Below, piece after piece: positions 5,763 through 63,119 of a DNA stretch of 64,000 nt. The translations under genes were made by a program, and so were the position numbers. This DNA is from an uncultured Candidatus Saccharibacteria bacterium. GTDB lineage: Bacteria; Patescibacteriota; Minisyncoccia; Minisyncoccales; GWA2-38-27. The notes beneath the pieces are model-generated. The model searched no databases. It saw only the letters and a list, made by a program, of their open reading frames with translations, and was not told where the DNA came from. The stretch spans positions 2,267 to 66,266 of the forward strand of contig CAYLWZ010000003.1 of NCBI GenBank assembly GCA_964387825.1, written 5' to 3'. Positions within the stretch are counted from its first letter, which is position 1. Every line of letters starts with the position of its first letter.

Positions 5763-7091
5763 TTAGGGATTTTTCGGAATTGAAATTAATACTTTATCTT
5801 CCAAATAATCTATTATGCCAATATATCCATTCAGAGCATGAGCAACCGAATCCGTCCTGATATATTTATTTTCCTTGTTCCAAAAAATACCGCCGATTGC
5901 TCTTTCAGGATTTTTGAGAAGAGAGATATTATCTTTTGAATAAGTATATTGGATAAGCCATCTTATTGTGTTAACAACAGCATTTTTATATTTTTCGCAA
6001 TCGTTTTTTTTCTCTTCAAGGCAAAATTCATAAACGCTTGCCATTACCTCGCCTATCCAGCCGTTTCCGCTAGTTGAATAAGCGCCGTCTATGCGTCCGT
6101 AATTTAAAACATCATTAGGGTCTTTTGTTTGATGCGAGATAATTTGAGCGCTTAATTCAAAAACTATATCTTTATAATAATTATCTTTTTTCGTTTTGTA
6201 AAAATCCATCAAAGACATTACTACCCAGGAATTTGAAATTGGGTTTTTGGAGCGATACTCTCCTATAATATAATTTCTTCCTGCGTCTTCATACTTTTTA
6301 GTAAAGTATTGAGCAATCTTTTCTGCCGCTTTGTAATATTCTTCGTTGCCGGTAACCGTATAAATTCGGGAAAGGGCAGAAAGAACCTCGCCATTATAAA
6401 GGATAGATTCTTTTGTATCATGAACCCACTTCCCTTCTTCGTTATATCTTATGTACGATTTCATGCTTCCGTTCGCTTTTTGCATAGTCGTCAGCCAATC
6501 AGCGGCTAATTCGGCAGACTCTAAATACTTTCTGTTATCAGTTAATTTGTACAGTTTTAGCAGAGTATATATGGTTTTTGAGGTCGTGCCAACCACAAAT
6601 TTCTTTTCTTTTTCCTTGTTGCCTAAATAATACGAATAGTAAAAAGCGCCATACCCTTTGCTTCCTTTCTCTTTGTTCTGCATAGAAAGAATAAATTCGG
6701 CGCATTTAAGCGCTTGATTCAAAAGCAAATCGTCTTTTTCTAAATCATAAAGCTCTAAAAGAGTAAAAGTAAGAGTTGACGTATAGGTGGTATGTAATCT
6801 ATTTTCAAAAGTGTCATTTAGAGCATAATAATATTTATGGACTCCGTTTTCTTCTTTATCTATCATTTTAAATAGATATTCTTTCCCTTGTTCAATCTTC
6901 TGCTCAATCATCTCTTTGTCTAACTTACGGACTATTAACGCCCCGTTAATAAGTTCTTTTTGCTTTTCATTAATCTCTATGGAGGACGAAAATTGTTTTT
7001 CGGGAAATAAAAATTTATAACCGACTACCCCCGCGCCCAGAATTAAAATAGCCAAAACCCAATAAAACAGTTTTTTATTTCTTTTTGCCAT
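5763..7091 (-). CDS. Membrane-anchored hypothetical protein, possibly an alpha/alpha-toroid (prenyltransferase/terpene-cyclase-like repeat) fold
   Basis: N-terminal TM helix. Repeated Q..(D/N)G-type motifs (MQNKEKGSKGYGAF, MQKANGSM, HQTKDPND..GRIDGAY). Weak motif-level inference only. Confidence 0.4.
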   Translation of the reverse strand: MAKRNKKLFYWVLAILILGAGVVGYKFLFPEKQFSSSIEINEKQKELINGALIVRKLDKEMIEQKIEQGKEYLFKMIDKEENGVHKYYYALNDTFENRLHTTYTSTLTFTLLELYDLEKDDLLLNQALKCAEFILSMQNKEKGSKGYGAFYYSYYLGNKEKEKKFVVGTTSKTIYTLLKLYKLTDNRKYLESAELAADWLTTMQKANGSMKSYIRYNEEGKWVHDTKESILYNGEVLSALSRIYTVTGNEEYYKAAEKIAQYFTKKYEDAGRNYIIGEYRSKNPISNSWVVMSLMDFYKTKKDNYYKDIVFELSAQIISHQTKDPNDVLNYGRIDGAYSTSGNGWIGEVMASVYEFCLEEKKNDCEKYKNAVVNTIRWLIQYTYSKDNISLLKNPERAIGGIFWNKENKYIRTDSVAHALNGYIGIIDYLEDKVLISIPKNP

Positions 7092-7198
7092 TTAACTATA
7101 TTAGCACTTAAAGCAAAATTGCCAACAAAGAGCGCGCCATTCTTGTTTTATACTCTCCAATGAGATAAAATAAATAAAACTAAAGAAAAAATTTTATT

Positions 7199-7933
7199 AT
7201 GTCGGGGCACAGTCATTGGCATTCAATTAAATATCAAAAAGGCGCGGCCGATGCTAAAAAGAGTAAGGCCTTTTCCAAAATAACCCGGCTCATCGCCGTT
7301 GCTGCCAGAGAAGGAGGAAGCGACCCTGGCGTTAACTCCAAATTAAGATTGGCCATTGAACAGGCAAAATCGCTCAATATGCCAAAGGATAAGATTGAGC
7401 AAGCAATAAAACGGGGGACAGGAGAACTGACCAGTGAAAAATTAGAAGAATTTACTTTGGAATCTTATGGACCCGGAGGAATCGCCATTATTATTGAAGT
7501 AATCACCGACAATAAAAACCGAACGCTCAGTGAAATTAAACAAATTTTAAATCAAAATAACGGAAAGATGGCCAACGAGGGTTCTGTAAGGTGGCTCTTT
7601 GAACGAAAAGGAATAATTACAGTGAACAACGAACAGCGAACAACGAACAGTGAATGGCGAGAAAAACTGGAATTGGCCGCGATTGAGGCAGAGGCAGAAG
7701 ATATCTCTTGGCAAAATGATATTCTTGATATTTACACTAAACCAAACGAATTGGAAAAAGTAAAAAAGAGCTTAGAAGAAAAAGGGGTCAAAATAGACTC
7801 TTCTTCTCTCGGCTGGTCCCCTAAAGAAACAATAGATACAGAAGAAACAAAAAAAGAAACTTGCCGAAAACTCTTTGAATCATTAGATGAAAACGAGGCG
7901 GTGCAAGACATATACTCAAACCTTAAAAATTAA
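7199..7933 (+). CDS. yebC: YebC/PmpR-family transcriptional regulator
   Basis: Diagnostic N-terminus MSGHSHWHSIKYQKGAADAKKSKAFSK and full-length family architecture. Contains a heptamer-array insertion at 7622-7656. Confidence 0.9.
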   Translation: MSGHSHWHSIKYQKGAADAKKSKAFSKITRLIAVAAREGGSDPGVNSKLRLAIEQAKSLNMPKDKIEQAIKRGTGELTSEKLEEFTLESYGPGGIAIIIEVITDNKNRTLSEIKQILNQNNGKMANEGSVRWLFERKGIITVNNEQRTTNSEWREKLELAAIEAEAEDISWQNDILDIYTKPNELEKVKKSLEEKGVKIDSSSLGWSPKETIDTEETKKETCRKLFESLDENEAVQDIYSNLKN

Positions 7934-12388: not shown

Positions 12389-12416
12389 TTTGTAGTTTGT
12401 ATTTAGTATCTTGTAT
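12389..12416. repeat. Heptamer tandem array (tttgtag tttgtat ttagtat cttgtat), left flank of the four-helix-bundle gene
   Basis: Four 7-nt units. Its reverse complement matches the array at 12788-12808 in 19 of 21 positions. Confidence 0.7.
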
Positions 12417-12801
12417 TCGTGTGGAAAATAAAAAATCTAAAATTAAATCTTTTACCGATTTAAACACTTGGAAAAAAGGACATAAATTGGTCTTAACAAT
12501 TTATAAAATATCAGAAAAATTCCCGAATAAAGAAATGTTTGGATTAACAAGCCAAATGAGGCGTTCTGCTATTTCAATCACCTCTAATATCGCTGAGGGC
12601 TTTAGTAGAAATACCAATAAAGACAAATGCCAATTTTATTCCATATCACAAGGTTCATTAACTGAATTACAAAATCAATTATTAATTGCTCGGGATATTG
12701 GTTATTTAAAAAATGATGAATTTCAAAAAATTGCCGAACAAACAATCGTTATTAATAAACTAATAAACGGGCTAAAAAGAATAAAATATACAAAATACTA
12801 A
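12397..12801 (+). CDS. Four-helix-bundle protein (23S rRNA intervening-sequence protein family)
   Basis: Family signature TSQMRRSAISITSNIAEGFSR and SQGSLTELQNQL. The true start is probably GTG at 12421 (VENKKSKIKSFTDL..), because the listed N-terminus is translated heptamer repeat. Confidence 0.8.
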   Translation: MYLVSCIRVENKKSKIKSFTDLNTWKKGHKLVLTIYKISEKFPNKEMFGLTSQMRRSAISITSNIAEGFSRNTNKDKCQFYSISQGSLTELQNQLLIARDIGYLKNDEFQKIAEQTIVINKLINGLKRIKYTKY

Positions 12802-12811: not shown

Positions 12812-13225
12812 ATGCAATTTACTATCCCTCAATTTATTGAAAAAGAACCAAAAATAATCGGGCCTTTTACTTTTAAACAATTTACTTTTATCGGCCTTGC
12901 CGGCGCTATTTGTATTTTTCTTTATTTTACGATTCCTATGTTCCTTTTCGTAATTGCCACAATAATTCTGTTAGGAGGAGCTCTCGCTTTGGCTCTTTTA
13001 AAAATTAAAAAAATTCCTTTGCCCGTTATTATAAAAAACTTTTTTATTTTTCTCTTCAAGCCAAAAATCTATCTCTGGGAAAGAAAAAACTTTATTTCTA
13101 AAATACTAAAAAAAGAAAAAAAAGTTAAAAAACTAAAAGAAACGATTAAAAAAGAATCTCCTTTAAAGCTCGCCTCAGGCGGAAAATTAAAAGAACTATT
13201 CTCTAAGTTAGAAACCAAAAAGTGA
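12812..13225 (+). CDS. PrgI/VirB3-like small membrane protein of a T4SS-like module
   Basis: N-terminal MQFTIPQFIEKEPKIIGPFTFKQFTFIG followed by two TM helices, as in PrgI-family proteins. Sits upstream of the VirB4-like ATPase. Confidence 0.55.
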   Translation: MQFTIPQFIEKEPKIIGPFTFKQFTFIGLAGAICIFLYFTIPMFLFVIATIILLGGALALALLKIKKIPLPVIIKNFFIFLFKPKIYLWERKNFISKILKKEKKVKKLKETIKKESPLKLASGGKLKELFSKLETKK

Positions 13226-13285
13226 ATTTTCAACAATAAGGTTCGTATCCTACGCCCTAAGATTTAGCAATATAGTAATGTATTT

Positions 13286-13915
13286 ATGCAAATTCCTACT
13301 CAAAACTTTTTAGAGTTTGACCAAATCAGAAACGGCGTTATTATCCTAAAAAACAAAGGATTGAGAATGATTCTAATGGTTTCTTCTTTAAATTTTGCTC
13401 TAAAATCAGAAGAAGAACAGAACGCTATTATATATCAATTCCAGAATTTTTTAAATTCTCTGGATTTTTCCTGCCAAATTCTCGTTCAATCAAGACAACT
13501 TAATATTACCGGCTATCTGGACAATCTGAAAAAAATTGAAGAAGGAGAAACAAACGAATTACTCCAAATACAAATCGGCGAATACAGAAAATTCATTAAC
13601 CAAATAATGACCGGCGGTTCGGTTATGCAAAAAACCTTTTATGTGATAGTTCCTTTTTCTGTTACGGAAATACGAACGACCCAAGGGAAAAAGAAATTAC
13701 CCGGCATTTCTAATATAACCGAGGAAGCTTTCCAAAGAGCAAAAACCCAGCTTCTTCAACGGGTAGAATTTGCCTCTTTAGGATTAAGGGCTTGCGGGCT
13801 CAAATCCGTTCCCTTAAATAACTTAGAGCTCATAGAGCTTTTTTGGGCGCTCTACCACCAATCAGAGGCAGAACAGGGTTATTATCCCGAGTTCCCGCCG
13901 GAATTAAGCAGATAA
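13286..13915 (+). CDS. Hypothetical protein, T4SS-module associated by position
   Basis: Lies between the PrgI-like and VirB4-like genes in the same orientation; no motif recognised. Confidence 0.4.
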   Translation: MQIPTQNFLEFDQIRNGVIILKNKGLRMILMVSSLNFALKSEEEQNAIIYQFQNFLNSLDFSCQILVQSRQLNITGYLDNLKKIEEGETNELLQIQIGEYRKFINQIMTGGSVMQKTFYVIVPFSVTEIRTTQGKKKLPGISNITEEAFQRAKTQLLQRVEFASLGLRACGLKSVPLNNLELIELFWALYHQSEAEQGYYPEFPPELSR

Positions 13916-13932
13916 CATAAGGTTAAGTATTT

Positions 13933-16900
13933 ATGAAAATTTCTTTGTTTGATATTTTTAAAAAAAAGGCGAAAATTTCCGAAGAACCTTTTCAAAAAGA
14001 GCCATTAAGGATCGCTGATATTGTTTCTCCTTCTTATATTGAGGTCAAACAAAATTACATCAAGATGGGAGAAAGCTTTACTAAAAGTTACTTCGTTTTT
14101 TCTTATCCAAGATATTTAAATACCGGCTGGCTCTCCCCGATAATCAATCTCAATATACCGATGGATATTTCTTTCTATTTTCATCCGGTCTCCAGTGAAA
14201 AAATTTTAAAAAAATTGAGAAAAAGAGTCACCGAGGTTCAAGCTGAGTTATCAGAAAGAGAAGAAAAAGGATTAATTAAAGACCCGACATTGGAAACCGC
14301 CTTTCAGGACTTAGAAGAACTTAGAAATAAACTCCAAACTGCCCAAGAAAGAATGTTCCATTTCAGTTTATATATCACAGTTTACAGTAAAACAGAAAAA
14401 AAATTAGACGACATAGAAACTAGTTTGAGGTCTATATTGGAATCCCGTTTGATTTATATTAAACCGGCCCTTTATCAGCAGAAAGAAGGATTTACCTGCA
14501 CCTCTCCTTATAATCTGGACGTCCTAACAGTTTCTAACTTGATGAATACCGCTCCTCTTTCAAGCACTTTTCCTTTTGTTTCCCCTGATTTAAGCTCAAA
14601 CGAAGGGATTCTTTACGGAATCAATAAGCATAACAATTCCCTTGTTTTATTTGACCGTTTTACTTTGCCTAACGCCAATTCGGTAATTTTTGCCACTTCC
14701 GGCGCCGGGAAAAGCGTAAGAGGAGACAGTCCTGTTTTGATAAAAGATAAAAAAGGGGAAATTCAACTTACGAAAATCGGCTCCTTAATTGAAAATACAA
14801 TAAAAAAACAGGGACTTGTTCAAATTGACGAAGAATTAGAAGGAACAATTAATCCGAAAATTAAAGTTTTTAGCTTTAATAAAAACTTTAAAGGAGAATG
14901 GTCTAAAGTAACCGTAGCCGCCAGAAAAAAAGCGCCTAATTTTTTCTATGAAATTAAGACCAAAAGCGGCAGAGAAATTACTGCTACTGCCGACCATAAT
15001 ATATTAATTTTTAAAAACGGAAAAATAATTGCCGCTAAAAGTTCTGAAATAAAAAAAGGAGATCATATTCCTCTGCCCCGGAAAATATCTATTAGCCAAA
15101 AACCGTTAAAATATTTAAATCTGTTAAATCTTCTTAAAAATTCAAAAAAAGTTTACATAATCGGCGCGGAAAATTTTCTAAAAAGAAATTATGGAATTCT
15201 CAAGAAGGTTATTATAGACGAAAAATACGACCGCTATCTTTATCGGTATCGCGACAGCCGGCCTGTTCCTATTCAGTATTTTTGGAAAATTTTGAATCTT
15301 CTTAAAATTGATTTTAAAAATCCTGATTTTAAAAATTTGAAAGTTACTTCAAAAAACGGGAAAAGGCAATATTCGTTGCCCGTTAATTTTCCAGTCACGA
15401 CGGCGCTTTTAAAAATCTTGGGGTTTATTGTCGCCGAAGGAACGACAAAAGACAAAATTATTATAATAAGCAACACAAATTCCGAGTTTCTCCAAGGCGC
15501 TAAGTCTGCCTTTGATTCCTTAGGCATCCCTTCTTTTTATATAGACCGAGGCGTTAACAGCGCCAGCCGGGTATTTATAGAGACGGTCAAAACTCTTGGA
15601 GGTTTTGGAAAATCCAAACAAAAAAAAGTTTGTCCTTTTATTTTTAATTTAGAGAAAAGACAAATTGCCTCATATTTGTCGGCTTACTTTGAAGGAAACG
15701 GGGGAGTGGAAAACCACGAAATAACGGCTTGCTCGAAATCTAAAAAATTGATTTCAGAGATTTCTTATCTCCTATATTATTTCGGCATTATTGCCAGAAT
15801 TTCCAAGATTAAAAAGAAAACTCCTTACTGGGAACATAAAAAATCTTATTATAAATTAGTAATTTCAGGGCAAGATAATTTAAAAAAATTTATTAGCGAT
15901 ATTAATTTTATTTCAAAAGAAAAAGAAGATAAGCTTAAACAGACCGTTAAAAAACAAGGAAATACCAATGTTGATGTTGTTCCCGGAATACAAAGCATTT
16001 TTAGAGAAATTCAACAATTGTTTGGTTTTCAGTTATATGATATAAAAAATTTCCGGGCGCTAAAAAACGGGACGTTTAACCCTTCTCCCGAATTGCTTAA
16101 AATAATAATACTGAAAATCAAAGAAAGAGTGCAATACTTTAAAGATTTGACTTCTACTTTTGGGATTTTAAGCAAACTTCCTGAATTATCTGAAATCGTC
16201 AATCTTGGCAAAAACAATAAAGAGTTAAATAGAAAATTATGGCAAACATTAGGACAAAGCTGGCGAGTAATGAAAAACGAAGAAGTAAGACCGGGTTCTA
16301 TTAATGCCTTCAGGGCAATTGAAACTATCTCAGGCGAAAAATATCAACTCCAAGAAATTAAAGAAGTAATTCATTCAGGATTTAAAGAAACAGGATTGGC
16401 AATAAAATACCTTAACCGTTCCTTACAACCTGCCCTAACTTATCGTTTCCAAAACAACACCGATTATAAAATGATACAAACTGCGGCTCAATTTATCTGG
16501 CAAAATTACCAAAAAATACTGAATAACGGAATTCCCCAAGTTGAAAAAAAATTAGAGCAACTCAAAGCATTGGCCGAATCTAACCTTTTTTGGGACCCAA
16601 TTATAAAAATTAAAAAAATTAAGAATAAAAAAGAAAAATATGTCTACGATTTAACCGTTGACAACGAGGTCTTTCTAACAGGCGAAGGGGGAATGTTTGT
16701 CCATAATTCTTATACGGTTAAATTAGAAGCGCTGAGATATTTGATGTTGAATATAGATTGTATAATCATAGACCCGGAGAATGAATATAAATTTCTGGTT
16801 GACGCGGTTGGCGGCTCTTTCTTTAATGTTTCTTTGGCTTCCCCCAGCCATATTAATCCTTTTGATTTGCCCTCTCCAAGAGAAGACGAAAAGCCAGAAG

Positions 16901-17730
16901 ACGTTTTGAGGTCAAATATTATTAATTTAGTGGGATTAACGAGAATTATGCTTGGAGGGCTCACTCCAGAGGAGGACGGCATTATGGACCGGGCAATTAC
17001 AGAAACCTACGCCGCAAAAGACATTACTACGGAAAGCGACTCAAAATTCTGGGGCAAAGAACTTCCTTTCCCCATAATGTCGGACTTAGAAGAAGTCCTC
17101 TCGGGAATGGAGGGAACCGAATCTTTAATCAAACGGCTCCAAAGATTTACCAAAGGAGTTTATTCTAGTTTTTTCAACCAACCTTCTAATATTAACATCA
17201 GTAAAAGATTGGTTGTATTCGGCATCCGCGATATGGAAGACGAACTCCGGCCAATGGCTCTTTTTATAATTTTAAGATACATTTGGAAAACAGTTACTTC
17301 AAAAGCAAAGAAAAGATTATTAATTGTTGACGAGGCATGGTGGATGATGCAAAACGAAGACAGCGCTTCTTTTCTTTTTGGAACAGTAAAAAGAGCGAGA
17401 AAATACTGGCTCGGAGTAACCACTATTACTCAAGACGTCAACGATTTTATGAAGTCAAAATACGGCCAGCCGATAATCACCAATTCTTCTTTAGCCGTTT
17501 TATTAAAACAAAATGCAGCTACCATAGAAACGGTTAAAAAAACCTTTAACTTAACCGATGAAGAAAAAATGACTCTATTGGACACACCGGTAGGAGAAGG
17601 GATATTCTTCGCCGGAACAAAGCATGTTCTAATTAAAGTTGTGGCTTCTTACGCCGAAGACCAAATAATTACTACTTCCCCCGGAGAAATAGCTAAAATA
17701 AAAGAAGCGAAAAAAGAATTAGGAGATTAA
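13933..17730 (+). CDS. VirB4/TraC-like type IV secretion ATPase, interrupted by an intein
   Basis: Walker A FATSGAGK|S is split. After removal of 14713-16707 it reads ..SGAGKSYTVKLEALRYL... Walker B LLIVDEAWWMM. About 600 aa of extein, the usual VirB4 size range. Confidence 0.8.
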   Translation: MKISLFDIFKKKAKISEEPFQKEPLRIADIVSPSYIEVKQNYIKMGESFTKSYFVFSYPRYLNTGWLSPIINLNIPMDISFYFHPVSSEKILKKLRKRVTEVQAELSEREEKGLIKDPTLETAFQDLEELRNKLQTAQERMFHFSLYITVYSKTEKKLDDIETSLRSILESRLIYIKPALYQQKEGFTCTSPYNLDVLTVSNLMNTAPLSSTFPFVSPDLSSNEGILYGINKHNNSLVLFDRFTLPNANSVIFATSGAGKSVRGDSPVLIKDKKGEIQLTKIGSLIENTIKKQGLVQIDEELEGTINPKIKVFSFNKNFKGEWSKVTVAARKKAPNFFYEIKTKSGREITATADHNILIFKNGKIIAAKSSEIKKGDHIPLPRKISISQKPLKYLNLLNLLKNSKKVYIIGAENFLKRNYGILKKVIIDEKYDRYLYRYRDSRPVPIQYFWKILNLLKIDFKNPDFKNLKVTSKNGKRQYSLPVNFPVTTALLKILGFIVAEGTTKDKIIIISNTNSEFLQGAKSAFDSLGIPSFYIDRGVNSASRVFIETVKTLGGFGKSKQKKVCPFIFNLEKRQIASYLSAYFEGNGGVENHEITACSKSKKLISEISYLLYYFGIIARISKIKKKTPYWEHKKSYYKLVISGQDNLKKFISDINFISKEKEDKLKQTVKKQGNTNVDVVPGIQSIFREIQQLFGFQLYDIKNFRALKNGTFNPSPELLKIIILKIKERVQYFKDLTSTFGILSKLPELSEIVNLGKNNKELNRKLWQTLGQSWRVMKNEEVRPGSINAFRAIETISGEKYQLQEIKEVIHSGFKETGLAIKYLNRSLQPALTYRFQNNTDYKMIQTAAQFIWQNYQKILNNGIPQVEKKLEQLKALAESNLFWDPIIKIKKIKNKKEKYVYDLTVDNEVFLTGEGGMFVHNSYTVKLEALRYLMLNIDCIIIDPENEYKFLVDAVGGSFFNVSLASPSHINPFDLPSPREDEKPEDVLRSNIINLVGLTRIMLGGLTPEEDGIMDRAITETYAAKDITTESDSKFWGKELPFPIMSDLEEVLSGMEGTESLIKRLQRFTKGVYSSFFNQPSNINISKRLVVFGIRDMEDELRPMALFIILRYIWKTVTSKAKKRLLIVDEAWWMMQNEDSASFLFGTVKRARKYWLGVTTITQDVNDFMKSKYGQPIITNSSLAVLLKQNAATIETVKKTFNLTDEEKMTLLDTPVGEGIFFAGTKHVLIKVVASYAEDQIITTSPGEIAKIKEAKKELGD
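14713..16707 (+). mobile_element. Intein (665 aa) with LAGLIDADG homing-endonuclease domain, inserted in the VirB4 P-loop
   Basis: N-terminal splicing block SVRGDSPVLI, block B TxxH (TADH), LAGLIDADG motifs LGFIVAEGT and YLSAYFEGNGG, block F YVYDLTVDNEVFLT, terminal FVHN followed by +1 Ser. Confidence 0.85.
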
Positions 17731-17731
17731 T

Positions 17732-18082
17732 ATGCCAGAAAAAACGCCTACAATCCAAACTAAACCTGCTCCCGAACCTGCTCCCGAGAAACTAAAAAAA
17801 AACAAAAAAGGAGGATGGTTTAGTAAAATTCCCACCGATATTCTCCTTTCGCCAGGAGGAATAATTCTAATTTTTTTCGCCGTCATAATGGAAATTATTG
17901 ACATTATTCCTATTCCCTTTGTTGACCAGTTATGGGAACTGCCTTTGGAAATTATCTTTATGTTATTATTAGTTATAATAGCCAAAGTTTCTATTAAAAG
18001 CTGCGTAATCCCTTTTCTTATTGAACGCATTCCTATTATCAACGATATTGCCCCCACCTGGATAATCCGAATGTTTACGTAG
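17732..18082 (+). CDS. Small membrane protein (T4SS-module associated by position)
   Basis: Starts 1 nt after the VirB4 stop. Pro/Ala-rich N-terminus, then 2-3 hydrophobic helices. Confidence 0.45.
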   Translation: MPEKTPTIQTKPAPEPAPEKLKKNKKGGWFSKIPTDILLSPGGIILIFFAVIMEIIDIIPIPFVDQLWELPLEIIFMLLLVIIAKVSIKSCVIPFLIERIPIINDIAPTWIIRMFT

Positions 18083-18114
18083 ATAATTCAGTAACGAAAA
18101 TTTTTAAAAAAAAA

Positions 18115-18145
18115 ACAAAAAAAGGAGCTTAGCTCCTTTTTTTGT
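18115..18145. terminator. Bidirectional intrinsic terminator
   Basis: aaaaaaaggagc-tta-gctccttttttt between convergent genes; A-run and T-run on either side. Confidence 0.75.
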
Positions 18146-24970: not shown

Positions 24971-27166
24971 TTATCCTCCCCCTGTATCACGAGGGCCGCC
25001 TTTTCTTGCCCCTGACTCTCCTGTGTCTTTATATTCCCTTGCTGTCTTTTCTTTTGTCGGAGGCTTGATTTTCATTTGTTCGCCGGTAGTAGGCATAGGC
25101 GGCATGTATTTTCCTTTTCTCCAGCCCTCTCCTGTAAATCCGGGATATTCTAAGGCCTTAAAATAACCATCAAGGTCGTTATGTTTCTTTTTAAAAGATT
25201 CGTGGAATTTTTCCCAGGCCTTGTCAAGATGTGGTCCTTTGTTGTCTTTAGCGCCTATTGCTGTGGCTTTATCTTCCAGGTTCTCGCTTTTAGATAATTC
25301 ATCATTTATATATTCTGAGAAGATTGTGTCAATTGAACCAAGGGCGGTTTCCTGGGCTTTTTTAACCTGTTTTAAAGCGTTCCAATCTCCCCGGCCTTTT
25401 TCCATATATGTCTCTATCACATTTTTGTCTTCCGCCACTTCTTTTTCCCAATGGGCAACATGGGGGGACCTTGATTCTTTAGTCGCTTCCGCAACTGCTT
25501 CTTTTCCCGCTTGTTTTCCTGTCATTGACCCATATCCACCCGCCCATTTTTTACCGGCTACTAATTGGGCCAAACGAGGGTCTCTTCTCAAGACATTACT
25601 AGTTAACATTCCTCCTCCTTGGGCTATTTCTAAGGGCCTTATTATTCTTTTTTTGAAATTGTCGTCCTCCAAAATTTGCTGGTCGGTAAGTTGTTTTGTC
25701 GCCTCGTCTTTTTCGTCTTTTGTTAATTGGCCCGGCTTCTTTCCTATTTTCTCCCCATAATTTTTATAAGCCAATTCTTTGAACGGTTTTAATTGTCTTG
25801 CTTCTTTAAACAAATCCTCGGCATCTCCTCTTTCTAAAACTTCCATTAAATTGCCGGTAGCGTCGACTTGGGTGTCCGCTCCTTTTAAAATTCTGTGAGC
25901 CAGAGTTCCGGAGGAGTAGGATTTTGTTTTTTCTTGGGCTTGTTTTATAGCCGGTGTCATCTGGCCGTATTTTCTCACCGCTTCAGGTAAGAACCATCTG
26001 GCGACAGGGATTTTTTCCGCTACTCGGGATATCTTCCCCACCTTTTCTTTCGTCTTTATTTTTTCCAGGGCCGGTCTTATACCGCGTCGAGCTATATTTC
26101 CTCCTGTCCATTTTACCGCTTTTGTCCCTTTTGTCTTGGCGAAATTTATTACAGACGAAGCACCCATAGCGGAAGTGGCAAGCCCGAAGATAAAACCGAG
26201 GTCAAGAAGGGCGATAGTCACGAAGTAAGGAAAAACCTTGTCAAGAAGGCTGGCCGTGCTTGTTTCCAGCCCCGGCAAGGTCATTTGTCCTTGAAAGACG
26301 CTATTTATTTCGTTAAAAGAAGCCATTGCCAAATAGAGAAAAAAAGCCAGAGGTATGCCGATAATTGACCATTGAATTAACTGCTCCCACCATTTGTCCC
26401 AGAATTTTTTAGTTGCCGGGAGAATCCAAGCCACAAAAGCCAGAGGAGACAGAATAACTAAAACCCAAATAGCAATGTATCGCAATAAAAAAATAACGGC
26501 CAGAAGAAGAAAGATAAAAGCAATATTAAAATTCAACACTATCATCACTATTCCTTTTGTCAGTATTGATGTTTTCGTTGCTATGTCCCCGATAAAAAGT
26601 TTAAATAAATCGTTAGAGATAGAGCTTACATCAAGGCCTGTTAAAACGCCGGAAACCCCTTCCTTGATTCCGACCAAAAAATAATTCATCACAATGTTTG
26701 AGGCGTCAACTATCAGTCCGCAGACAATCGGAGCGAAATTTACCAGTAAGGCGATAAAAATTAAACGCGCCAGGGTTTTCTCGGTAGCGTATTCTTTTAA
26801 TCGCAAAGCGATAGAGAGAGCGATGAAAACTAAAGCGGCCACTAACCCTAAATTCACAAAGTTTTTGGTAATGTCTAAACCAATTCTGATAATTTCATTA
26901 TTGCTTGGATTGGTGTAGCTTAGGGTGATAAAACCAGGACCGGTTACCCAATCAAGTAAAGCGCCGGCAATCCATGCGCTGATATTGCTGATTAAGGCGA
27001 TTATCCCGATAACGATTCCGATAAAACTGGTGGGGATGCCTAAAACAGCATTTACTACTGATTCTCCTACGTAAGCAGAAGAAATAAGCGGGAAAGAAAG
27101 GAAAAGAAAAACAGCGGTTGAAACAAGAAACAAGTGATTAAGATGATATTTTTTAAAATAATTCAT
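24971..27166 (-). CDS. Polytopic membrane protein, VirB6/TrbL-like candidate, with long hydrophilic C-terminal tail
   Basis: About 8-10 predicted TM helices in the first ~400 aa, then a Lys/Glu/Gly-rich tail. Last gene of the pilin-domain operon. Assignment is by architecture and context only. Confidence 0.45.
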   Translation of the reverse strand: MNYFKKYHLNHLFLVSTAVFLFLSFPLISSAYVGESVVNAVLGIPTSFIGIVIGIIALISNISAWIAGALLDWVTGPGFITLSYTNPSNNEIIRIGLDITKNFVNLGLVAALVFIALSIALRLKEYATEKTLARLIFIALLVNFAPIVCGLIVDASNIVMNYFLVGIKEGVSGVLTGLDVSSISNDLFKLFIGDIATKTSILTKGIVMIVLNFNIAFIFLLLAVIFLLRYIAIWVLVILSPLAFVAWILPATKKFWDKWWEQLIQWSIIGIPLAFFLYLAMASFNEINSVFQGQMTLPGLETSTASLLDKVFPYFVTIALLDLGFIFGLATSAMGASSVINFAKTKGTKAVKWTGGNIARRGIRPALEKIKTKEKVGKISRVAEKIPVARWFLPEAVRKYGQMTPAIKQAQEKTKSYSSGTLAHRILKGADTQVDATGNLMEVLERGDAEDLFKEARQLKPFKELAYKNYGEKIGKKPGQLTKDEKDEATKQLTDQQILEDDNFKKRIIRPLEIAQGGGMLTSNVLRRDPRLAQLVAGKKWAGGYGSMTGKQAGKEAVAEATKESRSPHVAHWEKEVAEDKNVIETYMEKGRGDWNALKQVKKAQETALGSIDTIFSEYINDELSKSENLEDKATAIGAKDNKGPHLDKAWEKFHESFKKKHNDLDGYFKALEYPGFTGEGWRKGKYMPPMPTTGEQMKIKPPTKEKTAREYKDTGESGARKGGPRDTGGG

Positions 27167-27180
27167 AAAAATATTCAGCG

Positions 27181-28467
27181 CTACAAAACTTTCCCTTTAA
27201 CGACAAACATTGAATTAATACAGGACCAACAATTCTTGATTTCTTTTTGTTCAGTTTCCTTTAAAACAAACCAACACGAACTACCGCATCTGCCGATTGG
27301 CTGGTCAAGAAGGTTTGGGTCGCTATTATGAATAATTTCGCATTTATCTCCCTTAAATTGGTCGTCGGAAAAAAGAACGGCGAAATAGGAACCTACCGGG
27401 TCAATTTTAATTGACCTCGGTCCTTGAGAGTAATCTTCTTCTTCGGTGGGAATCATATTCACGGCTTTTAAATCGTCTTTTGATTCCTTTGTATATAGTT
27501 CAGTTCCCTGCGGTTTACAGGAAAAATATCCGGGAGATGTTACGTCCTTAGGACAAAGGGTGGGTTCGTTGTAATGAAGGCATTGGTATAAAATTACTCC
27601 CTCATATCCTTCTGGCTCAAGGTTTGGTTTTTGAAAAAAAGTGATTGAACGGCTGGTTCCGAATTCGTCAAAACTGTAACCAATGGTTTCATTATTTTCA
27701 GAATAAATATTGGCTAATTTGCACTTGCCCTGGAAATTATTTTTTTCGTGAAAAATTATCCCAAAATTATATTCCCAATCTGTCCCACTTTTTTGAGGAA
27801 TTATGAAAAAAGTATCATCATTAAGGTCAAAAGTAAAGTTTTTCAGATTTCCCGAGGAGTTTACCTTAAAACAAGTTCCTATTCCGTTCTCTTTTTTATC
27901 CATCACTCTTCTTAGGTCTTTGACTGCTTGTTTAACCGCGTTTGCGCTCCCGGATGTATAGTTCCCGATAATGACGTCTATATTAGATATTTTATAATCA
28001 CAGAGATAAATTCCCGGAGTAACAACTGGCATAATAGCGGCTGGTTCCGGCGCTTCAAAGACAGTTAATTTAGGATTAATAGTATTGAAAAGAAGGACAG
28101 AAGATAAAAGTATCAGGGCTCCCAGAAGAGAGGAGGATATTCCTTTTTTTGCTTCGGAAAGTTTTTCCGGATTACCGGCCGAGGAAAGGTATTGAATGCC
28201 GTTATAAATCATAACTCCGAATACAATAAAGCCAATAATGAAAATAGAAAAATTAAAAATATATTTTATATAATCGGGCAGTCCGCTGGAAACGGTGGTG
28301 GGCGTGACCGTTCCGGGAATATTGGGATAGGCTATTTCCAATGTGCTGGTGTTAGCGCTGGCTTTAAGGCAATAAGGGGTCAGAAGTAATAAAAAGATGG
28401 CGGCAATTATTAAAATTCCCTTGACAGAATATATGTTCTCTTTTTTCTTTCTTTTCCCGCCTTTCAT
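27181..28467 (-). CDS. T4SS-pilin-like domain protein with Cys-containing C-terminal extension
   Basis: Signal peptide, then LPDYIKYIFNFSIFIIGFIVFGVMIYNGIQYLSSAGNPEKLSEAKKGISSSLLGALILLSSVLLFNTINP: two TM helices around a G-N-P loop, as in TrbC/VirB2-type pilins. About 300 aa of extra domain. Confidence 0.55.
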   Translation of the reverse strand: MKGGKRKKKENIYSVKGILIIAAIFLLLLTPYCLKASANTSTLEIAYPNIPGTVTPTTVSSGLPDYIKYIFNFSIFIIGFIVFGVMIYNGIQYLSSAGNPEKLSEAKKGISSSLLGALILLSSVLLFNTINPKLTVFEAPEPAAIMPVVTPGIYLCDYKISNIDVIIGNYTSGSANAVKQAVKDLRRVMDKKENGIGTCFKVNSSGNLKNFTFDLNDDTFFIIPQKSGTDWEYNFGIIFHEKNNFQGKCKLANIYSENNETIGYSFDEFGTSRSITFFQKPNLEPEGYEGVILYQCLHYNEPTLCPKDVTSPGYFSCKPQGTELYTKESKDDLKAVNMIPTEEEDYSQGPRSIKIDPVGSYFAVLFSDDQFKGDKCEIIHNSDPNLLDQPIGRCGSSCWFVLKETEQKEIKNCWSCINSMFVVKGKVL

Positions 28468-28479
28468 TTTTCTTAGAAA

Positions 28480-31260
28480 TTATTGCAAAATTTCATTAAT
28501 GTTTTCAGAGGCCTTGCTGATTTTATTGTTTACAATATCATTAATTTTTTCTAAATTATCTCCAATTTTATCCATTGGATAAGGATTTCCGCCGGAAGGG
28601 GCTTTTCCTTCAAAACTGGCGTAGTTTCCTAAAGAACTTAAACTTATAGTAAGAGAAGGAATCTGAAAACCTGGCAGATTGATTTCCACTTTTTTTGTAT
28701 AACTTAATTTATCCAAAGGAATAGAGGGAAGCTTCATAGTAATAGGATTGCCAAAGTTGATTTGTTTTAAGTCCTCTGGCCAGGGGATGTTGATTTCTGT
28801 GGGGATTTGAGACAACAGATCATTAATTTTTTCTGTCGGTATAGGGATTTCTCCCCCCGAGATTTTTAATCTTTGCTCTTCTAACACCGTTTTTATTTCC
28901 GCTTTTTCTTTTATGTATTTGGCTATAGCTTCCGAAATTACTTCATTATAGATTTGGGCTAATTCGTTAAGTTTGTTTTGTAACGGTTCAATGGCTTCAT
29001 TCATTTTGTCTCTGATTTTGTCTATTTTTTCTTTTATTCCCGAGGCATCTAAAGAATCTTTTATATCTTGACAGAACTTATTTACGCTTATATATTCATT
29101 GTTGCATAAATCGGGAATTTCGGGAAATTTAGGCCAGTAAAAATGATATTTTGGAAAACATTTAGTTAAAGGGACAAAAGAGAGACTAGCGCTAATGCAT
29201 CCGCTGGGAATAGGAATAAAAGACAGTAAGTACCCCAAAAGAAGATTGAAAGCGTTTATCTTTACGCCTTCCATCTCTAAGATGATTTTTGGTTTAGGCA
29301 GCTTGATTTCCGGCAGTTCTATCTCTGCGTTAAGAAGATTGCTTAAATTGAACGGGGGGATATTGATCGGCAGAGAAGGAAGATTAATCTTATTTATTTT
29401 TATTTTCAAGCCTATGTCAGAGGGTATGGAAATTTGAGGAACTTCAATTGTTGGTATAGAAAGATAAGGATAAGGGATTTTTACATTTATAGAAGGGATA
29501 AGATTTTTACAATTGTCTAAATTACAAAGTTCCAGGTCGGGAGTGATTAAGTCCTCAAAAATGAAATCGGGAAGACAAACTTTGAAGAAAGGAGAAAAAC
29601 TGAAATCAGGAAGGTCAATGTCGGGAATTTTTATGTCTGGAAGTTCTATTTTCGGAAAAGTGGGAAACAACGAAAGAGGGCAATCCATCCTAACTCCTGT
29701 TCCTGTGTTGTCATAAAAGGTCTGGGCAGGAATGGTAGTAGAGGGGTCTTGATATGTCTGGGAACCCGGATTTTTAAATTCTCCGGTAAAAAGAGGAAGG
29801 AATTTACAAGGAGCAGGCGCTTCTTTTTCCTCGCCCGCTGATTGAGCGTCTTCTTTTATCTGAGAACATTTATCTTCTAAAGTATTTAAAACCAGAGATA
29901 TGCTTTCGGGTGTGGCGTTGCAAACTTCTTCGCCTGGAGGTCCTGAGCATACTGTGTCAATATAACAATCTCTGGGGGCTGTTTCTCCTTCTTCTTGAAA
30001 CAAATTTATACATTCTGTCTGATACGCTCTATGATTTTTAAGGGTGCCCGACATTCCTAAGAAAGCGCATACAGCGGTTGGTTCTTCACAGTCAATAGGG
30101 TGTTCTGATCTAAGGCATTCGAAATATTCTTGCCAAACGGCATTGCAAGTACTCACAATATATAAATGAACGCTTTCTACGTAGAGGCATTGAACGCTAG
30201 CTATCCCAAATTGGTTTTTTGCTTGAGGGATTGCTTGACACTGTTCGGATAACCAGGAAAATGTCTGAGAATACCATTCAATTTCAACATAATGACTAGG
30301 GGATACTTCTCCTGTTGACCCTTCCCCAGAAGAGGCCGGATTTAATTGAGGGCAGGAGAATTTTAAACTGGGAAGTTTGGGCATTTCGGGAGAAGAAGGG
30401 TTAATGACAACTGGTTCATTTAAAGGTGTTTCTCCTATAGGAATATCAATATTAGGCAGGCGAATTTTAATGTTTTTTAAATTAGCAAGGTCTGCCAATT
30501 TTATTTTGTCCGGCAGATTAATCCCAAGTTTAATTTTTATTTCTCCTAAATCTAATTTTTCTAAAGTTATTCCTACATTAAATATGATTTTAATCGGTTC
30601 TTGTTGGCCTGGCAAAAGGCAGGCTATAAGTTCAATAATTGTTCCTTCTCCCCAATTTGCGCCGCCTCGCTTTTCAACAGAGTATAGGTCATTGTTTAAG
30701 AATCCAACATTATTTAGGGCTGAGGTAATAATATTTTCAGTAGATGATTCGTCAATAAAACCAAGCAAATCGTTTAGATTGATTTTTAATTTTAGCGCTT
30801 CGTCTGTCCTTAAAGTTTTCAATTCCGCTTCCAGACCGCTTTCTTTTTCTTTGACAAGAAGTTCTCTTAAGCGAGAAATTTCGTCAATTTTATTTTTAAT
30901 TGCTAATTGAGTTTTTTCAATTTCTTCTCTGTTTGGACAAGCTTCTCCAAAAGCTTCGGGAGAGCCGGGCTTAGTATCTCCTGTCCCCTCTCTTTCAATT
31001 TTGGACTTGGCGTTTGAGCAGTCGCATTCCTCCGTCAAATCTTTCAATTTTTCACTATAATAAGCCAAATCTTTACTGGCTTGATTTATCTCGGAAACAG
31101 CGTATTTTAATCTTTCTGGATAACGGGGGGTATATCCTACTCCTTGCGCGGAGACAGTGTTTTTAAATCCAATGCTAAAAGGAAGAGCCGAACTAGACAA
31201 AAAAATTAAAAGTAAAACAATAACAACGATTTTTTTCCCTTTTTTTAAAAATTTGTTCAT
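28480..31260 (-). CDS. Large secreted Cys-rich protein with L-P-x-I/P-x-I repeat region
   Basis: Start moved to MNKFLKKGKK (31260), because the listed 18-aa extension is translated octamer repeat. Signal peptide, many Cys, degenerate repeats (IELPDIKIPDIDLPDF, IEVPQISIPSDI, INLPSLPINIPPFNL). Confidence 0.5.
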   Translation of the reverse strand: MNKFLKKGKKIVVIVLLLIFLSSSALPFSIGFKNTVSAQGVGYTPRYPERLKYAVSEINQASKDLAYYSEKLKDLTEECDCSNAKSKIEREGTGDTKPGSPEAFGEACPNREEIEKTQLAIKNKIDEISRLRELLVKEKESGLEAELKTLRTDEALKLKINLNDLLGFIDESSTENIITSALNNVGFLNNDLYSVEKRGGANWGEGTIIELIACLLPGQQEPIKIIFNVGITLEKLDLGEIKIKLGINLPDKIKLADLANLKNIKIRLPNIDIPIGETPLNEPVVINPSSPEMPKLPSLKFSCPQLNPASSGEGSTGEVSPSHYVEIEWYSQTFSWLSEQCQAIPQAKNQFGIASVQCLYVESVHLYIVSTCNAVWQEYFECLRSEHPIDCEEPTAVCAFLGMSGTLKNHRAYQTECINLFQEEGETAPRDCYIDTVCSGPPGEEVCNATPESISLVLNTLEDKCSQIKEDAQSAGEEKEAPAPCKFLPLFTGEFKNPGSQTYQDPSTTIPAQTFYDNTGTGVRMDCPLSLFPTFPKIELPDIKIPDIDLPDFSFSPFFKVCLPDFIFEDLITPDLELCNLDNCKNLIPSINVKIPYPYLSIPTIEVPQISIPSDIGLKIKINKINLPSLPINIPPFNLSNLLNAEIELPEIKLPKPKIILEMEGVKINAFNLLLGYLLSFIPIPSGCISASLSFVPLTKCFPKYHFYWPKFPEIPDLCNNEYISVNKFCQDIKDSLDASGIKEKIDKIRDKMNEAIEPLQNKLNELAQIYNEVISEAIAKYIKEKAEIKTVLEEQRLKISGGEIPIPTEKINDLLSQIPTEINIPWPEDLKQINFGNPITMKLPSIPLDKLSYTKKVEINLPGFQIPSLTISLSSLGNYASFEGKAPSGGNPYPMDKIGDNLEKINDIVNNKISKASENINEILQ

Positions 31261-31266
31261 ATTTGC

Positions 31267-31300
31267 AATTCGTATGTTCGTGCTAATTCGTAAATTCGTA
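31267..31300. repeat. Octamer tandem array (aattcgta-like units) between two pilin-operon genes
   Basis: aattcgta tgttcgtg ct aattcgta aattcgta read directly. Confidence 0.65.
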
Positions 31301-31303
31301 AGG

Positions 31304-33631
31304 TTAAAATTCATTAGAGCCGCAACTATAAACTCCTCCGATATCTATATGGGCATAAGGGAGCGTGTCTAAAACATAAGCCCCGGGCGAACATTCTTTG
31401 GCTGCTTCTATTATCTTTTTTAAATAATTTTTTTGGAAATCCGAAGAAACGTCAAATTCCAGGGCGTAAGATTTATGGTCGTAACGGCAATAAGTTCCTC
31501 CGTAATGGGCGGAAACTTGTTCTTGGCGATAGTTTATCTCGTAGGGATATGAACACCCTTCCTGTTCTTCGTGTCCTGCTTCCCAGTCGCAGGTCCCTTG
31601 ATAGAGTTTTTTGTCAGAAATAGAAGCGATTTTTCCTATAATTTCATCATCTTCTAATCCTTCTTGTTGCTGGGTTTTGTCTAAATTTGCCCGCATACAA
31701 GAAAGGAGTTGCTTTAAAGGTTCAGAGGCGTCTTCATATTGATTATAGTATTTTACGTCATAACTACAAAGCCATCCTTTTGGGCAGTTGTCTTCCGATG
31801 GCAAAGGTTGGAATTCTTCGGCCGGGACAATATAAGAAGGCGGTTTTTCGGTCGGAGGAAGAATCTCTCCTGTTTCTTCGGCAAGAGAACAGCAGTAAAA
31901 GTTTCTGGGATGGCAGGAATTGATAATTTGATTATCAGACCCGTAATTTCCCTTAACGTCTTCACAGGACAGCAAAGCCCAATCAGGGTTATCAATATCA
32001 GAACTATGGCATAATCCGGCCGATACGCTGAGATTATTTAAATTGTAGGGGTTTTCTTTATCGTTCAAGTAGAAAGAAACCATGGACAAAGTTTGTTTTA
32101 TTTCTTTGATTGCGTCAAAAATTTTATCCTCGGTTTTTTTTATTTCTTTTGATTTTTTCTCAATGTCATCTGTCGGGCAGGCGTCTCCATTGCAACTGCC
32201 AATTACCTGAGTGCATCTTGTCAGGCAGCTGGGGACGCAAATAGTGCAAGGAATTGGCACGCAGCACATAAAACATAGGTTGGGGACACAATTGCAAGAA
32301 ATATTACAGTTCTTTTTATTGCATTGTGAGACCAGTTCGGTCATTTCCTGTATTTCTTTTGTTTCTTCCTCTATTAGAAGAAAAACCCTATTTAAATTGA
32401 CAATATTAATAATTGCTAATTCTCGGAGATTATCTAATATTTCCCCTATTGGCAATTCAACGGGGCAATTGATTTTTTCAATTCCGCTTAGTTGTTCGGG
32501 AATTTCTTGGGGAGTTAATTCTTCAGAGCGAACATCTATTTTTTCCGGAAAATAGGGATAGTCGTAAACAGTTCCTCCGCTTGAGCAATAGAAAGTAAGA
32601 GGGTCTCCTCGGGAGGGCCAGTAACTGGAAATTTTAGTTATCTGATTTCCCGTTTGTTCAAAATCTTTTTGCGTGGATAGATAGTCATTAAGAGTTTTCA
32701 TATCTTTGTTTTCGTTTTGACAGGCAATAACTCTCCCTTCCACTATTTGAAACTTTCTAAGGCCTTCTCTTAAAATATCTTTTTGTTCTTTGATTTTTTT
32801 TTGGTAATCTAAAAAAGTTTTTATTTTTTCTCCGTTTATTTCCAAAATCTTATTTATTTTTGCTCTCGGGGAATCTTCTTCTACGCTATTGCCTTGGTCT
32901 TTCTGGCAAACATCGCCTACGCAGGCAACGGGCAAGCCGGTCGCCGGCTTAGTGCATAAAGGGGTAAGATTTCCGCAGTGGCATTCATCGGTTAAGGTTC
33001 CTAAGTATTTATTTAGGCCAGAAATTCGGTTGAAAGTGTTGTCTGTCAATTCAGAATCGTCTACTTGTTCCTCTTTTTCAAGAAAATTTTGGAAATCCGT
33101 AATCACTTGTTTAAAATTGTTGATTTTTGTTTCTCCCCAAAGTCCCTCTTTCGCCGCTTGCCCCAAAGGAAGTTCTTCCATAATCAAGGAAGGACTTTCT
33201 ATTGTCAGGGGCGTTGATGTCTCTGCCTCTCCCGGAATGATTGCGTTTAAAGGAGGGAGATTGAAAGTCAATAATCCGGGATTAATAATATGTAATATTA
33301 TGTAAGAAGAAAGCAAAATAACTAATCCTATCGTTCCCCCGAAAATTTCTTCCCTTGCTTCTTTCATTTTAGCAGGGTTGCCAGTTGAGATTAAATAAAG
33401 AACGCCTCCCCATATTAAAACGGCAAGGGCGATGACGCCGGAAATCATAATAGCAAAATTAAAAACATATTTCAGGTATTCGGGCAGAGTAGTATCGCTT
33501 CCCAGCGTCTGTCCGAAAATTTCCGGATAATTGATTTCTAACTGGGATGCTTTAATGAAAGAAGCAAGAAAGAGAAGAAAGGAGAAAACAAAGAGAAAGC
33601 CCAAGAATTTTTTTTTACTTTTCCACAACAT
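31304..33631 (-). CDS. Giant T4SS-pilin-like domain protein with extremely Cys-rich central region
   Basis: N-terminal LPEYLKYVFNFAIMISGVIALAVLIWGGVLYLISTGNPAKMKEAREEIFGGTIGLVILLSSYIILHIINP is a paralogue of the 27181 gene N-terminus. Central CNKKNCNISCNCVPNLCFMCCVPIPCTICVPSCLTRCTQVIGSCNGDACP. Confidence 0.55.
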   Translation of the reverse strand: MLWKSKKKFLGFLFVFSFLLFLASFIKASQLEINYPEIFGQTLGSDTTLPEYLKYVFNFAIMISGVIALAVLIWGGVLYLISTGNPAKMKEAREEIFGGTIGLVILLSSYIILHIINPGLLTFNLPPLNAIIPGEAETSTPLTIESPSLIMEELPLGQAAKEGLWGETKINNFKQVITDFQNFLEKEEQVDDSELTDNTFNRISGLNKYLGTLTDECHCGNLTPLCTKPATGLPVACVGDVCQKDQGNSVEEDSPRAKINKILEINGEKIKTFLDYQKKIKEQKDILREGLRKFQIVEGRVIACQNENKDMKTLNDYLSTQKDFEQTGNQITKISSYWPSRGDPLTFYCSSGGTVYDYPYFPEKIDVRSEELTPQEIPEQLSGIEKINCPVELPIGEILDNLRELAIINIVNLNRVFLLIEEETKEIQEMTELVSQCNKKNCNISCNCVPNLCFMCCVPIPCTICVPSCLTRCTQVIGSCNGDACPTDDIEKKSKEIKKTEDKIFDAIKEIKQTLSMVSFYLNDKENPYNLNNLSVSAGLCHSSDIDNPDWALLSCEDVKGNYGSDNQIINSCHPRNFYCCSLAEETGEILPPTEKPPSYIVPAEEFQPLPSEDNCPKGWLCSYDVKYYNQYEDASEPLKQLLSCMRANLDKTQQQEGLEDDEIIGKIASISDKKLYQGTCDWEAGHEEQEGCSYPYEINYRQEQVSAHYGGTYCRYDHKSYALEFDVSSDFQKNYLKKIIEAAKECSPGAYVLDTLPYAHIDIGGVYSCGSNEF

Positions 33632-54593: not shown

Positions 54594-54914
54594 ATGAAAC
54601 AAGAGGTATTAGAAAAGCGAATAAGAGAAAATTTAGAAATTCAGGCCAAAAAAATGGCTTTATTGTTATATGATTCAACTATGCCTGATGATATCAAAGA
54701 GGCCTGGATTGCTTTATTGCCCTGGATGTCCTTAGGACAGATGGATAAGTTGCTTAATATCCTGGAAGCGAAATATTTAGACGGACAGACCAAAGATATT
54801 GATGAGAAATATAAAGATAAACTGAAGGAAGTGGCGGAGAAATTTGAAAAAGAGCAATACGAGAATGATAAAAAATTATTAGAGCAAATCAATAAATTAA
54901 AAAAGATATTATGA
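54594..54914 (+). CDS. Hypothetical coiled-coil protein
   Basis: ATGA overlap with the following large gene; no motif recognised. Confidence 0.4.
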   Translation: MKQEVLEKRIRENLEIQAKKMALLLYDSTMPDDIKEAWIALLPWMSLGQMDKLLNILEAKYLDGQTKDIDEKYKDKLKEVAEKFEKEQYENDKKLLEQINKLKKIL

Positions 54915-63112: not shown

Positions 63113-63119
63113 CATTGCT

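Follow-up and report, generated by a model that had tools for sequence, protein, structure and literature searches.

The locus described here lies on contig CAYLWZ010000003.1 (assembly GCA_964387825.1) of an uncultured Candidatus Saccharibacteria bacterium, and the whole stretch of 64,000 nucleotides (nt) that was analysed is referred to as the window. On the forward strand, positions 13933..17730 hold an open reading frame (ORF) of 1265 amino acids (aa), which encodes a VirB4-like ATPase of a type IV secretion system (T4SS) and into which an intein of 665 aa is inserted in frame. The insert begins SVRGDSPVLI, ends GGMFVHN and occupies residues 261-925 of the ORF; its flanks are FATSGAGK on the N-terminal side and SYTVKLEALRYL on the C-terminal side, and it splits the Walker A motif between Lys and Ser (GAGK-S, of the pattern GxGK-S; here and below a hyphen within a site marks the point of insertion). 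The original prediction, made from the letters of the DNA alone, had placed a LAGLIDADG intein at these coordinates and between these flanks, and both proved exact. When the insert was excised in silico, a 600-aa protein with a restored GAGKS remained, as had also been foreseen, and the Walker B motif (LLIVDEAW, extein residue 468) lies intact downstream of the insert.

Profile searches of the full-length protein recovered signals of both host and insert. In Pfam these were Intein_splicing (E=2.2e-20), LAGLIDADG_3 (E=2.2e-15, in two stretches) and P-loop_TraG (E=1.2e-20), the last with an E-value of 2e-26 when the spliced product was searched. In NCBIfam, intein_Nterm scored 49.5 bits (cut-off 24.5) and intein_Cterm 17.2 bits (cut-off 15.6), with further matches to the intein parts of the models for archaeal RNA polymerase A'', RFC, IF2, DP2 and DnaB. 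The intein signal is far above chance, and both databases bear out the class of insert that had been predicted. The host matched the equivalog NF045971, conju_CD1110 ('VirB4-like conjugal transfer ATPase, CD1110 family'), at 333.6 bits (cut-off 325), and is identified by these profile matches as a VirB4-like T4SS ATPase of the monoderm or MPF-FATA-like, CD1110 type. The bacterium that carries the gene belongs to the Patescibacteria as a relative of Nealsonbacteria.

The 600-aa spliced protein was used as query against 5.8 billion proteins. The best 120 matches, all of 594-610 aa and 75-86% identical over 96-100% of the query, lack the insert without exception; their sources are Nealsonbacteria, Parcubacteria and Patescibacteria, and depositors had labelled some of them VirB4 or TraC components. 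Alignment of the full ORF with eight orthologues left a sole large gap, the block of 665 aa between the invariant K260 and S926, and the spliced product aligned end to end with these proteins of about 600 aa. The reconstituted intein-free virB4 site of the window reads GCCACTTCCGGCGCCGGGAAA-TCTTATACGGTTAAATTAGAA, and that of L001, one of two intein-free loci (L001 and L002) with which gene order was also compared, reads TTCCGGTTCCGGAAAA-TCCTACGCAGTTAAA. The original prediction had proposed such a comparison: the insertion point falls exactly at K260/S926, and the orthologues, rather than running continuously across the block, do without it. Both exteins are complete, show neither frameshift nor stop and have 85% identity to the nearest orthologue, and the exact protein of the window is already present, unnamed, in public collections. 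A part of the insert, a helical domain of 220 aa, has no known fold match, as might suit a lineage-specific accessory domain of VirB4. We ruled that explanation out, since the closest orthologues lack precisely the whole insert; the strong Hint and LAGLIDADG profile and fold matches and the canonical Ser1 and HN-S boundaries leave it next to no probability.

The intein motifs quoted in the original prediction were all recovered, namely TADH (intein residues 92-95), the two LAGLIDADG motifs LGFIVAEGT (236-244) and YLSAYFEGNGG (321-331), YVYDLTVD (643-650), and a C-terminal HN that directly precedes Ser+1 of the extein. What did not stand was the assumption that the second LAGLIDADG motif is intact, as it has Asn at its catalytic position. 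The residues essential for splicing are all present on alignment (Ser1, T92xxH95, D646, H664-N665 and Ser+1). An AlphaFold2 model of the intein, built on 20 family sequences, reached a predicted local distance difference test score (pLDDT) of 88.4 and a predicted template modelling score (pTM) of 0.82. It is composed of β-rich Hint strands (residues 1-125), a mixed linker (126-228), two LAGLIDADG helices each followed by β-sheets (229-400), an all-helical part (401-621) and a second set of Hint strands (625-664), and the intein is accordingly modelled with the Hint fold. The best Foldseek match in the PDB was PI-PkoII (2cw7; E=1.2e-25, template modelling (TM) score on target 0.71), followed by the TliVMA intein, PI-PfuI and PI-SceI; mini-inteins matched the predicted model at a root-mean-square deviation of 1.7-2.1 A, and I-DmoI and I-Tsp061I matched as well. 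PI-PkoII was also the best PDB match by sequence (E=3e-18). The intein is strongly basic (isoelectric point (pI) 9.8, vs 6.0 for the extein), which fits the expectation for a DNA-binding endonuclease. Taken together, these alignments, profiles and fold matches identify the insert as a genuine class-1 intein, in which a predicted Hint splicing domain harbours a nested LAGLIDADG endonuclease. The coordinates of its parts and of the neighbouring features are collected in Table 1.

Base composition was considered as a sign of foreign origin and set aside as uninformative: the GC content of the intein (0.325, vs 0.353-0.388 in the exteins, with GC at third codon positions lower too) is within the normal range of the window (0.23-0.45). 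No further intein was found among 27 larger ORFs of the window scanned with Pfam.

Table 1. Features of the virB4 locus, its intein and the T4SS genes of the window (positions are those of the window)
Feature	Position	Strand	Evidence
PrgI-family (VirB3-like) T4SS membrane protein	12812..13225	+	Pfam PrgI; syntenic in L001 and L002
TraC-like / TrsD-like protein directly upstream of virB4	13286..13915	+	76-80% identical to PF26593 (TraC-like) proteins of L001 and L002
N-extein of VirB4-like ATPase, aa 1-260, ending in Walker A GAGK	13933..14712	+	Gap-free alignment with intein-free orthologues
Intein, 665 aa, Ser1 to His-Asn	14713..16707	+	Pfam and NCBIfam intein and LAGLIDADG matches; absent from more than 120 orthologues; AlphaFold2 pLDDT 88.4; best fold match PI-PkoII 2cw7
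N-terminal Hint (splicing) region, aa 1-125, with Ser1 and block B T92-A-D-H95 (nt 14986-14997)	14713..15087	+	NCBIfam intein_Nterm; PDB sequence matches to intein N-terminal regions
Linker / DNA-recognition-like region, aa 126-228, pI 10.1, deleted in some family members	15088..15396	+	Model secondary structure; occupancy map
LAGLIDADG endonuclease core, aa 229-400	15397..15912	+	Pfam LAGLIDADG_3; motifs end helices 230-242 and 315-329 in model
LAGLIDADG motif 1, LGFIVAEGT	15418-15444	+	
LAGLIDADG motif 2, YLSAYFEGNGG	15673-15705	+	
Codon AAC, Asn329, catalytic position of LAGLIDADG motif 2	15697..15699	+	Family alignment; DNA identical in two other assemblies
Family-specific all-helical basic domain, aa 401-621, pI 9.8	15913..16575	+	AlphaFold2 pLDDT 88
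C-terminal Hint region, blocks F and G (YVYDLTVD...GGMFVHN)	16576..16707	+	NCBIfam intein_Cterm
C-extein, aa 926-1265 plus stop, starting with Ser+1 that completes GAGK-S; Walker B LLIVDEAW	16708..17730	+	P-loop_TraG and conju_CD1110 matches
Small conserved ORF, 116 aa, downstream of virB4	17732..18082	+	62-64% identical to ORFs in L001 (one gene between) and L002 (directly after virB4)
VirB6/TrbL_3-like gene	24971-27166	-	tblastn with L001 and L002 proteins
Three large T4SS genes, two with T4SS_pilin matches	27181-28467, 28480-31314, 31304-33631	-	tblastn; Pfam T4SS_pilin
Type IV coupling protein (T4CP)-like ORF, 825 aa	59970-62447	+	Weak Pfam matches to T4SS-DNA_transf, TrwB_AAD_bind and DUF87

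Since the Lys and Ser of GxGKS lie 665 residues apart in the precursor, it is reasonable to suppose from the sequence that ATPase function requires splicing; the 1265-aa precursor would be unable to form a P-loop. In the predicted reaction Ser1 would undergo an N-to-O acyl shift and the resulting ester would be attacked by Ser+1, Asn665 would cyclise with the aid of His664, and the branched ester would be rearranged to a peptide bond, the products being an ATPase of 600 aa whose GAGKS is intact and a released, basic protein of 665 aa. Alternatively, the insertion might be a dead intein that does not splice and effectively inactivates virB4, and this copy does have at least one degenerative change (N329). 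Such an outcome is very unlikely in our judgement, given that all splice residues are intact, that the exteins are complete and open, that no stop is found in any of the 80 related inteins described below, and that T4SS genes proved essential for epibiotic growth in the one Patescibacterium strain tested (PMC12102498).

The degenerative change concerns the endonuclease. Two LAGLIDADG helices at the domain interface are found in the profile matches, the predicted model and the fold matches alike. The helix of motif 1 ends in an acidic residue, E242, and Glu occupies this position in 75 of 78 family members; the helix of motif 2, for which the family consensus is YFEGDG, ends in N329 instead. 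Across the 78 aligned inteins the catalytic position of motif 2 is Asp in 76, Glu in one and Asn in one, the window copy alone having Asn, and N329 aligns with the Asp of GDG in PI-PkoII. The DNA from 12933 to 18137 is identical in a Joint Genome Institute (JGI) metagenome contig and in a Logan assembly, and N329 is therefore not the artefact of one assembler. In single-chain I-CreI, a D-to-N change in one half-site left no detectable double-strand cleavage, and with the equivalent change in I-MsoI nicking only remains (PMC2655683). By analogy with these enzymes, the window copy probably cannot produce the double-strand break on which homing depends and would be at most a nickase; we infer that it probably still splices and no longer homes efficiently.

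Whether this copy might nevertheless be a fully mobile intein, with an active endonuclease that can still home and in which Asn329 is tolerated or compensated (e.g., by the conserved Glu327), has to be weighed at this point. Apart from Asn329 the endonuclease domain is intact and is folded with confidence in the model, E242 is retained in motif 1, presence and absence show the family to be clearly dynamic, and the I-MsoI variant changed at one site from D to N did keep its nicking activity (PMC2655683). However, all of the 78 relatives but this one (77) have Asp or Glu at the position, double-strand cleavage is lost from single-chain I-CreI when one half bears this substitution, and the counterpart of E327 in motif 1 is Val, so that E327 is not at the canonical metal-binding place. 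On this evidence we consider full mobility unlikely.

Taken together, these results make it highly probable that the window carries a genuine P-loop intein of a widespread family, in a copy that is probably splicing-competent and not a double-strand cutter. Several points tell against this interpretation. The three assemblies may share reads, in which case N329 may still be a rare variant or a systematic error. Furthermore, one catalytic Asn is no strict proof of a total loss of the endonuclease, and nicking could promote some homing. Inteins with Ser1 and Ser+1 and with Lys at position -1 can splice slowly or in a context-dependent way.

The family was scanned in one genome per GTDB species, which yielded at least 164 stretches encoding a relative, and 80 loci were kept; some third-party assemblies carry evidently generic organism labels. 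The kept loci come from Nealson-, Yanofsky-, Taylor-, Zambryski-, Uhr-, Kaiser-, Gottesman-, Ames-, Collier-, Woese-, Harrison- and Gribaldobacteria. When the intein by itself was the query of a protein search, about 26 VirB4-like proteins with an intein were recovered from Falkow-, Harrison-, Collier- and Pacebacteria; identity reached 58% over the full intein and 62% over shorter stretches, and inteins in other hosts matched only weakly. The virB4 P-loop is the insertion site in all 80 kept loci, 79 of which read GxGK-[S/T/C]...HN-S[Y/F], and none of the reconstructed inteins contains a stop codon. Residue +1 is Ser at every locus whose C-terminal junction was captured, and T92, H95, D646, H664 and N665 are invariant in 78 of 78 aligned inteins. 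The modal length of the family is 657-670 aa, which makes the 665 aa of the window copy typical, and the occupancy map shows some database members without the first LAGLIDADG motif or without the helical domain.

At intein position 1, 72 of the 78 aligned sequences have Ser, three have Thr and three have Cys. The members with Thr1, which is unusual among inteins, are L012, L014 and L078, to which the protein search adds P0125 and P0128; those with Cys1 are L065, L068 and L074. In one locus, L070 (Gottesmanbacteria, JAUXTO010000022.1, locus 6001-7809), the intein lies five residues upstream of the usual site (FGK-S...HN-SGGGKSYF), at the first of two GK-S dipeptide contexts, and may represent an ectopic homing event or an alternative site.

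Some database entries of the family have already been auto-annotated as 'intein/homing endonuclease' or 'LAGLIDADG family homing endonuclease'. Our literature search found no published link of inteins with VirB4 of Patescibacteria, or candidate phyla radiation (CPR), and a 2025 survey of 2,474 Patescibacteria VirB4 proteins uses none of the words intein, homing and LAGLIDADG (PMC12102498). Among 72,556 plasmid records there was no related intein, and one weak match to a free-standing LAGLIDADG protein was found in Streptomyces. The family is large and apparently undescribed in Patescibacteria.

Identities of intein and extein were compared over the 68 loci with complete exteins (2278 pairs). 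The two are correlated (Spearman 0.75), with the intein almost always the more diverged; the intein tracks extein divergence, and its deep structure therefore follows the host. Recent cross-lineage transfer was sought as pairs in which the intein is much more similar than the extein; the largest excess was 4 points, and no clear case was found. The window intein stays at a plateau of 58-63% identity to its relatives while the exteins range over 62-81%, an observation that is ambiguous. A neighbour-joining tree built from the exteins places the window together with the intein-free P0001 as its sister (85% identity). At a much shallower level, the intein-bearing L004 (Nealsonbacteria) is 96% identical in its extein to the intein-free P0010, P0016 and P0023, and this group shows a very recent gain or a precise loss of the intein. 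The patchy, shallow distribution and the conservation of the endonuclease residues agree with an ordinary homing cycle, in which inteins are gained, become fixed, decay and are lost among related genomes. Because the active-site residues of the endonuclease are kept in the family and the intein is present or absent among near-identical alleles, the family would still be cycling at the virB4 site by homing and loss.

The same data bear on a role in regulation, in which a domesticated intein would act, through conditional splicing, as a post-translational switch for the T4SS of an epibiotic lifestyle. An insert in the P-loop, at the catalytic site of a machine that is probably essential, would suit such a switch, as would its retention across deep Patescibacteria lineages in step with extein divergence. 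The intein is dispensable, however, as the best 120 orthologues and the 96%-identical alleles do without it, Ser1/Ser+1 gives no redox switch, and the conserved endonuclease residues point to selfish homing rather than host function; a regulatory intein is, in our view, highly improbable.

The helical part of the intein (residues 401-621), a domain of about 220 aa, is confidently predicted to be all-helical and basic (AlphaFold2 pLDDT 88). No Pfam family matched it, and the PDB fold search of these residues gave no match, the best hit having E=0.09 and a TM score below 0.2. In a search of 1.84 billion representative proteins, 17 matches to the domain were obtained (E<=0.001), and the nine that were scanned all carry intein and LAGLIDADG domains, five of them with P-loop_TraG as well and one with a DUF87/AAA_10 host. 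In P0167 (1196 aa), a DUF87/AAA_10 ATPase, an intein relative with the helical domain is found close to the N-terminus (about 85 residues away), and this host may be a different or truncated ATPase. The helical domain is a family-specific, uncharacterised accessory module of a homing endonuclease, and our guess is that it may serve as an extra DNA-recognition module. It could also be imagined that the family as a whole is more than selfish, gating the T4SS by conditional splicing, or with the excised intein taking on a second DNA-related function through the helical domain, its spread being coupled to the DNA-transfer machine; we give this idea a slender chance.

The original prediction had further taken the homing endonuclease as a mark that the T4SS module itself was exchanged between genomes, and this claim found no support. 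Upstream of virB4 lie genes for YebC, RuvC, tyrosyl-tRNA synthetase (TyrRS), a class A penicillin-binding protein (PBP1A), a 23S rRNA-intervening-sequence (23S-rRNA-IVS) protein and the PrgI-like and TraC/TrsD-like proteins, and downstream the small conserved ORF is followed by jag, yidC, dnaA and dnaN. Those scanned neighbours that have a Pfam match are housekeeping or cell-envelope genes, and some scanned neighbours have no match. Both intein-free loci, L001 and L002, keep the order PrgI-like/TraC-like/VirB4, directly followed by three pilin-like genes and, in L002, by a TrbL_3/VirB6-like gene after these; L001 also shares the upstream genes and jag/yidC with the window. No relaxase or integrase was seen among the scanned ORFs, which are part of the ORFs of the window. 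T4SS of Patescibacteria are mostly monophyletic, related to the conjugation systems of monoderms and often located near the replication origin (PMC12102498), and the window system matches this description. Judged from gene content and order, the T4SS is a conserved chromosomal system beside the dnaA/dnaN origin-region genes and not a mobile element. Homing, besides, moves the intein alone with short flanks, and the copy in the window is probably no longer a double-strand cutter; the patchy distribution indicates at most DNA exchange, or gene conversion, at the virB4 site only.

The T4SS set of the window is split, with the genes at 24971-33631 on the minus strand and those at 12812-18082 on the plus strand separated by jag, yidC, dnaA and dnaN. 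This arrangement points to an inversion or rearrangement in the neighbourhood of the origin. The T4CP-like ORF is 42 kb from virB4, in agreement with the reported usual separation of T4CP genes from virB4 in Patescibacteria. The 23S-rRNA-IVS gene (12397-12801, plus strand) encodes a four-helix-bundle protein and lies between a conserved ORF of 140 aa and the PrgI-like gene; L001, the closest relative, has a 72-aa version of it at the same place. No RNA or tRNA features lie near the locus, the only one in the window being a tRNA-Lys (63039-63113). Farther away, an 888-aa ORF without Pfam match (54911-57577, plus strand) lies in a region with a raised GC content of 0.44-0.45 vs about 0.35 elsewhere and a strong positive GC and AT skew.

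P-loop inteins are textbook knowledge and VirB4 inteins have been listed before, and the present finding changes no concept. Its importance is of a practical kind: VirB4 is the signature protein for the T4SS of Patescibacteria, and an insert of 665 aa in a minority of genomes affects annotation, length filtering and phylogenies. Furthermore, the family comprises inteins with Ser1, Thr1 or Cys1 that share a single site and are present or absent at 96% extein identity, and this natural set should be useful for the study of intein dynamics in tiny genomes.

Five inteins in VirB4 (COG3451) have been catalogued in Firmicutes and Proteobacteria (Novikova et al., 2016, PMC4760082, Table 3); compared by host protein and phylum, they share the host family of the window intein and belong to other phyla. 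P-loops are a recognised hot spot of intein insertion, with DnaB-b, MCM-a and RFC-a as examples (PMC4760082). The inteins at site a of RFC-S, site a of MCM and site b of DnaB are likewise inside Walker A, in host ATPases that are not orthologous to VirB4, and an RFC-type relative, P0151, has the equivalent junction GTGK-C...HN-T. Between the RFC-type relative and the window intein there is little similarity (E=2e-10; 32% identity, covering 24% of the query), and these are therefore independent insertions or very old relatives.

In architecture, the nearest known systems are PI-PkoII (Thermococcus kodakarensis DNA polymerase intein 2, 2cw7) and PI-PfuI (1dq3), in which, as in the window intein, a LAGLIDADG endonuclease with two motifs splits the Hint domain. 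PI-PkoII shares the C-terminal HN as well, whereas its first residue is presumably Cys where the window intein has Ser1. Both are archaeal, and PI-PkoII is hosted by a DNA polymerase, whereas the window intein is bacterial and its host is VirB4. Before the C-terminal splicing region the window intein has about 180 extra residues in an all-helical domain, where PI-PkoII has only about 55 residues, and at the second catalytic position of the endonuclease it has Asn in place of the Asp of PI-PkoII.

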